4,655 nt of DNA. Origin: a virus. Lineage: Duplodnaviria > Heunggongvirae > Uroviricota > Caudoviricetes. The DNA lies in IMG/VR virus record IMGVR_UViG_2671180458_000007; one strand, given 5' to 3'. Shown here piece by piece: positions 2,918 through 4,655 of this stretch; within the stretch, counting starts at the first letter, position 1; the number at the start of each line of letters is the position of its first letter. The position numbers and the translations under genes are program-made. The notes under the pieces are model-generated. The model did no database searches. It saw nothing but the letters and a program-made list of their open reading frames with translations, and had not been told where the DNA came from.

Positions 2918-3000
2918 TGATGAACAAAAAACAACCTGATTCGACACTAAAAATTTTTATTTCTCAACATATCAATAACTTATAGTGGTGGTGATGGTGC

Positions 3001-3098
3001 CATAAAAATCAAAAAATGCGCCTTTTTCCGCGCCCTCCCGCCCCGTGTACAGGCCCACCCCACCAGGAGGACCCGCAAAAAAGCCGGATTGCTCCGGC
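3001..3098. repeat. Copy B of the ~100 bp conserved intergenic cassette (first copy at 464-561)
   Basis: See copy A. It sits immediately 3' of the stop of the 3106-3378 gene and ends in a terminator hairpin. Confidence 0.7.
3076..3098 (-). terminator. Rho-independent terminator after the small regulator-like gene
   Basis: On the minus strand: GCCGGA-GCAA-TCCGGC hairpin followed by TTTTTTG, 8 nt after the TAA stop at 3106-3108. Confidence 0.7.
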
Positions 3099-3105
3099 TG
3101 TGTGA

Positions 3106-3378
3106 TTAGCTGTCCTGGTAATTGCGCCATATTTCATCACCAGCACCATCTATACCCATTTCGGCACAAGTGCGATTAACTGCATTTCTCAGGTCTCCGA
3201 AATTATCAGGCGGCTCCGGTGGCCTCTGTGCCTTCCTGGAACATTCCAGCCGTCGCATCGTGATGTGATGCCGTTCCTTGTCTGTCTCCACCAGCATCAT
3301 GACTTCACCCCATCGCGCCGCCGCCCTCCGGTAAAATCCTTTCGCTTCGAGTTCTTCCGCTATGCGGTCATGTACCAT
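3106..3378 (-). CDS. Small basic protein (~90 aa), possible PerC-like transcriptional regulator
   Basis: The ORF track gives 3106..3498 (130 aa), but that start overlaps the ssb 3' end by ~110 nt. The internal ATG at 3376-3378 (MVHDRIAEELEAKGFYRRAAARWGEVMMLVETDKERHHITMRRLECSRKAQRPPEPPD...) lies 10 nt after the ssb stop and has GAGGGGG 5-6 nt upstream. The PerC-like call rests on recalled resemblance of the N-terminal region and is unverified. Confidence 0.55.
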   Translation of the reverse strand: MVHDRIAEELEAKGFYRRAAARWGEVMMLVETDKERHHITMRRLECSRKAQRPPEPPDNFGDLRNAVNRTCAEMGIDGAGDEIWRNYQDS

Positions 3379-3388
3379 CGTCACCCCC

Positions 3389-3799
3389 TCAGAACGGAAT
3401 ATCATCACCGTAAGGGTCATCGCCTCCCGCTGGTGGCTGATTACCCTGTGTGCCTGTGGTTTTGCGTCTGTTCCCGCCTGGTCGCACCGTTTTCGCACTG
3501 ATTACGCTGTCGGCAATGACCTGATAACCCTGACGCGTCTCCCCGTTCTGTCCGGTCCACTGGCTTATCTGCATCACGCCGGATACGCTGATTACGTTGC
3601 CTTTCTCATGTCCTGCCAGTTGGTCGGCCTGTTTGCCAAATGCGATGACCGATAACCATAACGTCGCCTGTCCGTCCTGTGCCTGACTGCATGGCAGTGA
3701 TACCGCCATACGCGCCAGCGTCATCGGTGTGCCCTTGCTGGTCTGTTTTACCTGCGGGTCGTCCACCAGCCGCCCGTAAGCGGCTATCTGTGCTGTCAT
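3389..3799 (-). CDS. ssb: Single-stranded DNA-binding protein (SSB), compact 136-aa form
   Basis: The translation ends in DPYGDDIPF; the acidic DDIPF terminus is the conserved SSB protein-interaction tail (E. coli SSB ends DFDDDIPF). It is preceded by a Gly/Pro/Gln-rich linker and an OB-fold-like core (LWLSVIAFGKQADQLAGHEKGNVISVSG...QWTGQNGETRQ, compare E. coli [30 protein letters not shown]...KWTDQSGQDR). Good Shine-Dalgarno GGAGAGGTG upstream of the ATG at 3797-3799. Confidence 0.88.
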   Translation of the reverse strand: MTAQIAAYGRLVDDPQVKQTSKGTPMTLARMAVSLPCSQAQDGQATLWLSVIAFGKQADQLAGHEKGNVISVSGVMQISQWTGQNGETRQGYQVIADSVISAKTVRPGGNRRKTTGTQGNQPPAGGDDPYGDDIPF

Positions 3800-4041
3800 G
3801 ATTTCACCTCTCCGGTTTTAACGTTGATGGTTGTTACCTGTTCCGCTTCGGCAATCTCCCGCTCTGTCAGCGTGGCAAAGTTTGCAGCTGCCGTTGTCAT
3901 GAATGCGCTAATCAGTTCGGGATGTGCTTTCGCATATCCTTCCCCGGCGTTGCGGTCGATGATTTTTATCGACACCCTTAACCAGTGTTCCGTCAAATCA
4001 AGGGCGTGCGATTGTGATTTTTTTGTGTGCTTCGCTGTCAT
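3796..4041 (-). CDS. Hypothetical protein (81 aa), translationally coupled to ssb
   Basis: ORF MTAKHTKKSQSHALDLTEHWLRVSIKIIDRNAGEGYAKAHPELISAF... with ATG at 4039-4041. Its TGA stop overlaps the ssb ATG (ATGA at 3796-3799). The Shine-Dalgarno is weak. It is the first gene downstream of the iteron array. Function unknown. Confidence 0.6.
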   Translation of the reverse strand: MTAKHTKKSQSHALDLTEHWLRVSIKIIDRNAGEGYAKAHPELISAFMTTAAANFATLTEREIAEAEQVTTINVKTGEVKS

Positions 4042-4085
4042 AGGCTTTATCTCACAGCAGTAAATTAAAATTTTTGCGTTTTAAC

Positions 4086-4314
4086 CCTTCACCTGTTCAC
4101 CTTTTGATATTTTATCTTTTAATTCATAATGTTAAGGGGTGAACAGTTTCACAAAAACTATTCACCAACTATTCACCACTGTTCACCCTTGAAGCTCAAT
4201 AAACAATCAAAAAGGTGAACAGTGAATAGTTTGGTGAACAGTTCATAAATAACTGTTCACCCTATAATATACTGATATAAAAGATATTTATGACAGAGTG
4301 AACAGTGGTGAACA
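4086..4314. repeat. Iteron array: ~11 copies of TGTTCACC/GGTGAACA (P4 type I iteron sequence) with AT-rich flanks; candidate crr- or ori-like cis replication site
   Basis: Exact or one-mismatch octamers at 4086, 4094, 4159, 4170, 4180, 4254 (TGTTCACC orientation) and 4138, 4214, 4222, 4233, 4297, 4307 (GGTGAACA orientation). Several are spaced 10-11 bp apart. Two ~50 bp imperfect direct repeats (4138-4188 and 4214-4262) each run from GGTGAACAGT to CTGTTCACCC. AT-rich stretches at 4101-4136 and 4262-4296. The array ends 15 bp from the stop of the flanking gene. Confidence 0.8.
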
Positions 4315-4328
4315 GTTATTCCATAAGT

Positions 4329-4655
4329 TTAATTTTTGCTATCGTCATTAGTGACCGATACACATGACGGCATCCAGTCTTCTGATTCCTCCGTCAGTTT
4401 CACGTTTGAACGCAAACCGTGCTTCGTTTTCCGTTTCATATACTCCCTGCCATATTCCGCCATTGCCCCCGGCATATCTTTACCGAAGCGCGTCAGTGTT
4501 ACAGGTTTACCAAACCCATGTGCCTTCATATAAGCCAGATAGGCATGATAGAGATACCTGCGCGGGCTGAATGGCACAATTTCAGCATTACCCACTAACA
4601 GGCCATCACACATTACCGACGACATGAGATAGCCGCAGAAGTCCACCAGCGAATC
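4329..4655 (-). CDS. C-terminal part of a replication protein, probably a P4 alpha-like primase/helicase (partial; 5' end beyond the right edge)
   Basis: The minus-strand frame is open from the window edge (…DSLVDFCGYLMSSVMCDGLLVG...) to TAA at 4329-4331. The first start codon in the window is a GTG, so the real start is presumably upstream of the window. The identity is inferred from context: in P4 the alpha gene is immediately followed by the crr iteron region that its C-terminal domain binds. No primase motif is visible in this fragment. Confidence 0.6.
   Translation of the reverse strand, partial: DSLVDFCGYLMSSVMCDGLLVGNAEIVPFSPRRYLYHAYLAYMKAHGFGKPVTLTRFGKDMPGAMAEYGREYMKRKTKHGLRSNVKLTEESEDWMPSCVSVTNDDSKN

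Follow-up and report, generated by a model that had tools for sequence, protein, structure and literature searches.

A twelve-site array of P4-type iterons downstream of rep as the probable replication origin of a PICI-type satellite of Escherichia coli

Phage-inducible chromosomal islands (PICIs) of Gram-negative bacteria possess replication origins defined by two sets of iterons flanking AT-rich DNA (PMC6092414). For the island EcCICFT073, Fillol-Salom et al. 2018 (PMC6092414) reported the origin, ori, to lie 3′ of pri-rep; a plasmid carrying pri and ori replicates, and the delta-ori and delta-pri plasmids do not (PMC6092414). Rep proteins of the Staphylococcus aureus pathogenicity islands (SaPIs) are helicases of superfamily 3 (SF3) or SF6 that end in a winged helix and bind 6-12 iterons located right after rep around an AT-rich region and are thought to self-load as two hexamers (PMC9371898). 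The record of the satellite phage P4 (NC_001609) applies the label 'ori type 1 repeat' to the octamer TGTTCACC and its variants TGTTCACA, TATTCACC and TCTTCACC, in ori as well as in crr. Here we describe an array of such octamers in a 4655-bp stretch of viral DNA (IMG/VR record IMGVR_UViG_2671180458_000007, Caudoviricetes), the whole of which is called the window below. Comparison with these systems indicates that the array is very probably the replication origin of a PICI-type satellite and would be bound by the Rep protein encoded next to it.

Seven exact copies of TGTTCACC are present in the window, every one of them inside 4094-4314, as compared to a chance expectation of 0.20 (sd 0.45, maximum 2; 200 dinucleotide shuffles of the whole window). 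With at most one mismatch, 14 matches were found against 4.4 expected for the whole window, and 10/14 lie in the array. Allowing at most two mismatches yielded 12 sites within 4086-4314, namely seven exact and five degenerate ones, six per orientation; the initial annotation of this DNA had counted about eleven octamers and had proposed the comparison with a shuffled background. The array and its sites, each line beginning with the start of the site, are:

4086-4314, whole iteron array of twelve sites in two inverted six-site modules, the proposed replication origin (from counts, alignment, fold and phasing)
4086-4093, + strand, iteron CCTTCACC with two mismatches; the same position is an exact TGTTCACC in the induced element vB_KppS-Ant
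4094-4101, + strand, iteron TGTTCACC
4138-4145, - strand, iteron TGTTCACC
4159-4166, + strand, iteron TATTCACC
4170-4177, + strand, iteron TATTCACC
4180-4187, + strand, iteron TGTTCACC
4214-4221, - strand, iteron TGTTCACC
4221-4228, - strand, degenerate iteron TATTCACT with two mismatches, overlapping the 4214 site by 1 nt and occupied in relatives
4233-4240, - strand, iteron TGTTCACC
4254-4261, + strand, iteron TGTTCACC
4297-4304, - strand, iteron TGTTCACT; the 99%-identical locus L002 has the exact TGTTCACC here
4307-4314, - strand, iteron TGTTCACC, the first site past the Rep stop

Successive site starts are separated by 8, 44, 21, 11, 10, 34, 7, 12, 21, 43 and 10 bp. The Rayleigh concentration of the site centres was 0.81 at a period of 10.5 bp, with a best value of 0.857 over periods of 10-11 bp, whereas randomly spaced sites gave 0.52 +/- 0.09 (P = 0.0006), so that the helical phasing of about 10.5 bp suggested earlier was confirmed. 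Chance or low complexity as the source of the array is ruled out by the shuffles together with the phasing test. The stop codon of rep is located at 4329-4331 on the - strand and the nearest iteron (4314-4307) starts 14 nt past it, in agreement with the description of the array as directly following the replication gene.

The twelve sites are organised in two modules of about 100 bp with six iterons each, which mirror one another around a central spacer:

4086-4187, Rep-distal module, the mirror of the proximal one: two + iterons, a 36-bp AT-rich spacer, one - iteron and three + iterons
4214-4314, Rep-proximal module: three - iterons (4214, 4221, 4233), one + iteron (4254), a 35-bp AT-rich spacer and two - iterons (4297, 4307)
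4188-4213, central 26-bp spacer with the dyad axis near 4199
4262-4296, proximal AT-rich spacer of 35 bp, 80% AT, a candidate melting site with length and position as in P4 ori1
4102-4137, distal AT-rich spacer of 36 bp, 83% AT, containing TTAAC-N4-TGAAT, which is conserved across iteron classes
4042-4085, - strand, AT-rich segment from the last iteron to the start of the gene for an 81-amino-acid (aa) protein, with a slightly degraded copy of the conserved CTTAAACGCATATTTTTTAATTTTAT

The GC content is 0.25-0.35 over 4040-4340 and about 0.45-0.6 in the flanks. The initial annotation had placed AT-rich DNA on both sides of the array; an AT-rich flank does exist at 4042-4085, but the main AT-rich tracts are the internal spacers 4102-4137 and 4262-4296. 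The main structure of the region is an imperfect palindrome of about 230 bp centred near 4199, with 56-nt arms that are 75% complementary. Two direct repeats of about 50 bp, as described initially, had to be rejected: 4138-4187 and 4214-4261 are inverted copies, which seem direct because each is bounded by inverted iterons, and the sole direct repeat found comprises 29 nt with 79% identity (4138-4166 and 4233-4261).

Beside the single inverted iteron of each module we noted a spacer motif, CCC-N1-2-TAAC-N3-4-(A/C)TGA(A/T)T, which occurs irrespective of the iteron class and at the same positions in the related loci L001, L005, L014, L022, L026 and others, and also in P4 ori1. It may represent a host-factor site or the start of melting or priming. 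Inspection of the spacers by eye alone gave poor matches to the consensus of an integration host factor (IHF) site or a DnaA box.

The gene preceding the array encodes a putative initiator of the P4 alpha type (domains of the window proteins were assigned with Pfam):

4329-4655, - strand, 3′ part of rep, coding for the C-terminal winged-helix origin-binding domain of a P4-alpha-like initiator/helicase; the gene runs past the window

The last 105 aa of Rep match the origin-binding domain of P4 alpha (PDB 1KA8) with E = 1.1e-24 over query residues 2-93. The full-length protein of L002 (13303-15120) has 605 aa and contains D5_N, DUF5906 (SF3 helicase) and Pox_D5, the latter spanning residues 496-591, and it shares 44% identity with P4 alpha over the shared region. 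Pfam detected Zn_Ribbon_Prim and Toprim in P4 alpha and not in the 605-aa protein, and the corresponding segments are deleted in the alignment. The first approximately 160 aa gave no Pfam hit and match phrog_864 (DNA primase, a profile of 1064 positions) with 8e-22, as well as phrog_2850. The gene is annotated as 'DNA primase family protein' even though its product is devoid of the zinc-ribbon and Toprim domains.

P4 ori1 (NC_001609, about 9310-9413) uses the same octamer as the window, and P4 9296-9424 can be aligned in register with either half of the array. The six-site intervals are 10, 11, 22, 43 and 10 bp in P4 ori1, as compared to 7, 12, 21, 43 and 10 bp in the proximal and 10, 11, 21, 44 and 8 bp in the distal module of the window. 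The AT-rich stretch of ori1 (9361-9395, 35 bp) occupies the same place as the window spacers of 35 and 36 bp, a TTAAC...TG.AT motif beside the single inverted iteron is common to both, and the cognate proteins have homologous C-terminal origin-binding domains. The proposed identity of the octamer with the type I iteron of P4 is thus borne out by the annotation of the P4 record and by the 1KA8 match of the Rep C-terminus. By these alignments the array and the type I iteron sites of P4 are homologous, and the array is predicted to work like them. The two loci differ in layout, as ori1 consists of one module, located about 2.3 kb upstream of the start and about 4.7 kb from the stop of alpha, and is accompanied by a separate crr, while the window has two modules head to head right past the rep stop and no second cluster. 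Moreover, P4 alpha has its own zinc-ribbon and Toprim primase domains, in contrast to Rep of the window element.

The location of the array immediately after rep resembles that of P4 crr (NC_001609, 4291-4590), which lies directly downstream of alpha and contains the same iterons. Each of the 120-bp repeats of crr can be aligned with half of the array, both having a tandem iteron pair, a 35-bp AT-rich spacer with the short T-rich motif TCTTTTAAT and an inverted iteron; the alignment to both P4 regions proposed in the initial annotation produced a match of the halves with the crr repeat in addition to the in-register match with ori1. However, crr comprises two direct 120-bp repeats 60 bp apart with five annotated sites each, and a terminator is located between alpha and crr, whereas the window modules are inverted, abut each other, carry six sites each and begin 14 nt past the stop with no terminator in between. 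Three features of the P4 replicon, namely separate ori and crr, direct 120-bp repeats and a primase domain in the initiator, are missing from the compared sequences of the window element, and therefore the array is not to be filed as P4 crr or ori as such. A full-text literature search for the octamer returned only primer sequences.

Three Xenorhabdus loci (L045, L065 and L073) possess long alpha-type genes, given as 800-846 or 804-836 aa, close to the length of P4 alpha. Their arrays are inverted two-module arrays as well, and not direct 120-bp repeats; the offset is about +41 as compared to +14 in the window, and a palindrome CCCTATTTCTTTAATAGGG follows. As the arrays of these long-alpha loci are inverted, the crr layout of P4 itself may be the unusual one.

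The element harbouring the array is very probably a PICI-type satellite of about 10 kb, integrated in E. coli at a tRNA-Pro gene. A stretch of E. coli JNEC-KY174 shares 99.1% identity with the window and is situated in an island of about 10 kb adjoining tRNA-Pro with the gene order tRNA-Pro, integrase, small helix-turn-helix (HTH) protein, Icd-like, DUF4222, 605-aa Rep, gap, 81-aa open reading frame (ORF), single-stranded-DNA-binding protein (SSB), PerC and capsid fusion. In L002 all genes except one small ORF are encoded on one strand. The HTH protein scored 17.8 bits against Phage_AlpA (cut-off 21), as compared to 65.8 bits for AlpA of EcCICFT073. A related gene arrangement is found in vB_KppS-Ant, which is 16.5 kb in size. 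No second iteron cluster was detected in vB_KppS-Ant or in L002, where the 22.6 kb contain no other site with 0 mismatches.

EcCICFT073, which serves as reference for Gram-negative PICIs, shows the order DUF4222, rep, a gap of about 290 bp, small ORF, ssb, perC and capsid, which is the order of the window element. Its gap agrees with the window array in length, in location 3′ of pri-rep and in the positions and orientations of the sites. The iteron itself is TGTCTACC or TATCTACC in EcCICFT073 and TGTTCACC here, and the wing loop of Rep differs correspondingly; furthermore, the distal spacer of EcCICFT073 is GC-rich where that of the window is AT-rich, and separate capsid and decoration genes take the place of the ClpP-protease/capsid fusion. 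In most PICI-type relatives the first iteron starts 14-15 nt past the rep stop. Two hallmarks of a PICI origin, an array immediately 3′ of pri-rep and two iteron sets flanking AT-rich DNA, were found in the window. Judged by position, synteny and architecture, the array is a member of the Gram-negative PICI origins, and its initial interpretation as a cis-acting replication site is supported by the synteny with the ori region of EcCICFT073 as well as by the register shared with P4 ori1.

The likeness extends to the logic of the SaPI origins, which also combine a helicase-initiator, iterons right after rep, an AT-rich melting region and opposed iterons on each side, and in which Rep/ori pairs show matched specificity (PMC9371898). 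In contrast to the window, SaPI iterons have 5-6 nt of unrelated sequence and surround one central AT-rich region, instead of two 35-bp spacers inside mirrored modules; the resemblance to SaPIs is one of logic.

Species-representative genomes were scanned with an alignment of four Rep proteins, which yielded 350 related loci, and the best 80/350 were taken further. For each locus, k-mers were counted in the 400 bp past the rep stop, and the sites were mapped in 35 classified loci, the class being the dominant k-mer in the array. Five iteron classes were found among these 35 loci from many enterobacterial genera, and each class showed one or two wing-loop motifs, none common to two classes. The association is given without phylogenetic correction, and the classes may partly be clades. 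Outside the wing loop the C-terminal domain of Rep is well conserved between classes, which are:

class TGTTCACC, wing loop K[RK]x-[TS]KxG[ILM][RQ][ST]N, including P4 and the long alpha proteins of Xenorhabdus
class TGTCTACC, wing loop KRxxCT[KR]GPDKGR..[ST]N, or TRK-VKGVTQTN in EcCICFT073
class TCTCCACC, wing loop IRKKSTKGN[MI]RSN
class CTGTCCG, wing loop KKAESKKKATRGRIQSN
class CTGTCCAC, wing loop KKERATRGPSKGNYQSN

The positions of the sites past the rep stop are nearly invariant: about +15 and +25 forward, +68 reverse, +89, +100 and +108 forward, a reverse group at +130-160, +183 forward, and +227 and +235 reverse. This scaffold is fixed in Escherichia, Klebsiella, Raoultella, Pluralibacter, Pectobacterium, Pantoea, Yersinia, Rahnella, Serratia and other genera. 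Within the arrays of the TGTTCACC class (n=13), conservation was 0.89 for iteron columns and 0.70 for the remaining columns. As all sites change together with one Rep wing loop, the pattern fits a protein-binding site read by that domain and not a hairpin.

A hairpin had to be considered as the functional unit, since one strand of 4080-4320 (241 nt) folds into a single hairpin of -102 kcal/mol (shuffles -47.5 +/- 5, z = -10.9), and the octamers would then be by-products of a palindrome acting as read-through RNA or as an extruded cruciform. The Rfam results, sub-threshold microRNA-precursor-like hits only with no family reaching its gathering score, agree with a generic hairpin. Yet the tandem copies 4086/4094, 4159/4170/4180 and 4297/4307 share the octamer without pairing mutually, the octamers of all sites switch between classes together with the wing loop, and pairing outside the iterons is not conserved, since EcCICFT073 and L085 have a GC-rich distal spacer which lacks complementarity to their proximal spacer. 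This explanation is consequently regarded as extremely improbable.

For an origin recognised by Rep, the following mechanism can be proposed. Rep would bind the twelve TGTTCACC-type iterons with its winged-helix domain, in which the wing loop is the most likely point of contact. With the iterons on one helix face, and with each module composed of three iterons, one inverted iteron, a 35-bp AT-rich spacer and two iterons, one Rep hexamer might be nucleated per module, six sites corresponding to six subunits, which would result in two oppositely oriented helicases. These could melt one or both AT-rich spacers and then unwind outward, while the element's own SSB, encoded two genes downstream, would coat the strands. 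Primers might be provided by host DnaG or by an unrecognised activity, which is proposed because Rep contains no recognisable primase domain.

Several points weigh against initiation at the array. For the window element, Rep binding, melting and the place of initiation are all predictions, and so are the ideas of six sites per hexamer and of a double hexamer. The absence of a recognisable primase domain from Rep, according to Pfam, leaves the priming step unexplained, and common descent of the members of a class could make the association of iteron and wing loop look stronger than it is. The alpha-proximal array of P4, crr, is an accessory site required in cis and not the initiation site, and therefore the position of the window array alone is no proof of initiation there. 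The EcCICFT073 plasmid kept rep in cis, so that a start site inside rep would still be compatible with that result.

P4 replicon II is arranged in this way, consisting of alpha with an internal iteron-free ori2, plus crr. By analogy, the window array might be a crr-like accessory site, bound by Rep and required in cis, with synthesis starting elsewhere, for example at an iteron-free site inside rep. Such a role would agree with the array occupying the exact position of crr directly 3′ of an alpha-type gene, with the alignment of the distal half to the 120-bp crr repeat and with the EcCICFT073 experiment, in which rep and ori resided on one plasmid and the two models are not separable. On the other hand, the element (L002) has no second iteron cluster, both halves fit the layout of ori1, inside the annotated origin of P4, better than that of crr, and the PICI and SaPI literature treats the array after rep as the origin and its AT-rich region as the site of melting (PMC6092414, PMC9371898). 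We consider a merely accessory role unlikely; the array would even then be a Rep-bound cis replication site.

If the array is the origin, its resemblance to ori1 allows a further, tentative and rather doubtful suggestion: the PICI origin might be an inverted duplication of the P4 ori1 module, forming a twelve-site pad for two opposed hexamers of an alpha homologue devoid of primase, in which swaps of octamer and wing loop reset the specificity, in which cross-activation with P4-like satellites could occur and in which Rep occupancy is tied to cargo expression. Nature would then contain at least five matched, orthogonal Rep/ori pairs. Arrays of similar sequence are present in 685/5426 complete E. 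coli genomes; the number of places per genome has a median of 2 and a maximum of 12. As this lineage keeps the P4 specificity and many E. coli carry at least two arrays, P4-like satellites and PICIs could cross-activate or compete; co-resident elements with the same iteron, P4-like prophages included, could show cross-talk or incompatibility. The conserved segment beside the terminal iterons could, under the same suggestion, link Rep occupancy to cargo including the virulence regulator PerC.

The genes of the window are all located on the - strand, in the order, from right to left, rep 3′ end, 287-bp non-coding gap, 81-aa ORF, SSB, PerC, 64-aa ORF and capsid fusion:

3796-4041, - strand, gene for an 81-aa protein, phrog_1231, no Pfam domain, the first gene downstream of the array
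3389-3799, - strand, single-stranded-DNA-binding protein gene (Pfam SSB, 6e-16)
3106-3378, - strand, PerC-family transcriptional activator gene, accessory cargo (Pfam PerC, 5e-42)
2454-2648, - strand, small ORF, phrog_4934, no Pfam domain
568-2457, - strand, ClpP-like prohead protease fused to an HK97-type major capsid protein in one gene (Pfam)
29-310, - strand, small ORF, phrog_1561, no Pfam domain

The ssb gene is probably part of the replication module. The ClpP/capsid fusion is the only recognisable morphogenesis gene of the approximately 10-kb island.

Because no other non-coding DNA than that of the array precedes the 81-aa gene, the array could in principle serve mainly in transcriptional control, as an operator or promoter through which Rep controls 81-aa/ssb/perC or its own read-through transcript. 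A strict sigma-70 scan of 3700-4655 revealed no promoter, as compared to 1.7 in shuffles, so that the region is if anything depleted, and a scan of the same interval for intrinsic terminators was likewise empty. A loose scan gave weak - strand candidates only, such as TTAACA-15-TAAAAT at 4135-4109, with poor spacing or poor -10 hexamers and of a kind to be expected in AT-rich DNA. With no terminator after rep, read-through from upstream can serve 81-aa/ssb/perC and a separate promoter is unnecessary, which fits the one-directional transcription of Gram-negative PICIs (PMC6092414). The last iteron could provide a weak -35 (TGAACA), and a segment of 25-30 bp past the last iteron pair, AT-rich and represented by CTTAAACGCATATTTTTTAATTTTAT, is conserved across genera and iteron classes before the variable downstream genes (L001, L006, L008, L010, L011, L013-L017, L019-L027). 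This segment could be a weak promoter with a -35 overlapping the last iteron, or the edge of the origin module; it has no good -10 hexamer, and the window contains a slightly degraded copy of it (about 4056-4085). The needs of an operator are far exceeded by twelve phased sites and two AT-rich spacers. A role mainly in transcriptional control thus appears very unlikely, and the suggestion that the array, as the only plausible promoter region, could couple replication to expression of 81-aa/ssb/perC found no support in the scans.

Taken as a Rep-bound origin, the stretch can be assigned as the probable site at which replication of a satellite very common in E. coli is controlled in cis. The feature is of an already well-described kind, and current understanding is not overturned. 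Small additions may be the in-register match of both halves with ori1, the conservation of the scaffold to the base pair across five specificities and the co-varying residues in the wing loop. The PICI replicon appears closer to P4 ori1 and crr than the 'distant homology' of the PICI literature suggests, as octamer, six-site spacing and origin-binding domain are shared. A fixed scaffold with swappable pairs of octamer and wing loop would furthermore permit predictions on initiator specificity and on the incompatibility of co-resident satellites. PerC variants occur in some E. coli PICIs, and some PICI PerC homologues were reported to activate the locus of enterocyte effacement (LEE) pathogenicity island (PMC6092414); the copy number of the induced island could therefore affect virulence gene expression.

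Besides the array, the window contains a direct repeat of about 111 nt (452-562 and 2989-3099) with 75% ungapped identity, or 86% mean column identity for slightly longer stretches aligned with MAFFT. Each copy is located just 3′ of a - strand gene, the capsid fusion and PerC, respectively, and contains a terminator-like hairpin with a T run, beyond which lies a G-rich GGGGCGGG.CGGCGCGG stretch. The first copy shows 92-94% identity with an unannotated gap in Shiga toxin (Stx)-converting lambdoid phages, e.g. VT1-Sakai, which lies between Rz and a gene annotated as hypothetical directly upstream of the terminase large subunit gene. The hypothetical gene is presumably the small-terminase gene, and the gap between Rz and terminase is the position of cos in lambdoid phages. 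Judged by this similarity, two cos-like sites of the helper type, at a distance of 2.5 kb, seem to be present in the island.

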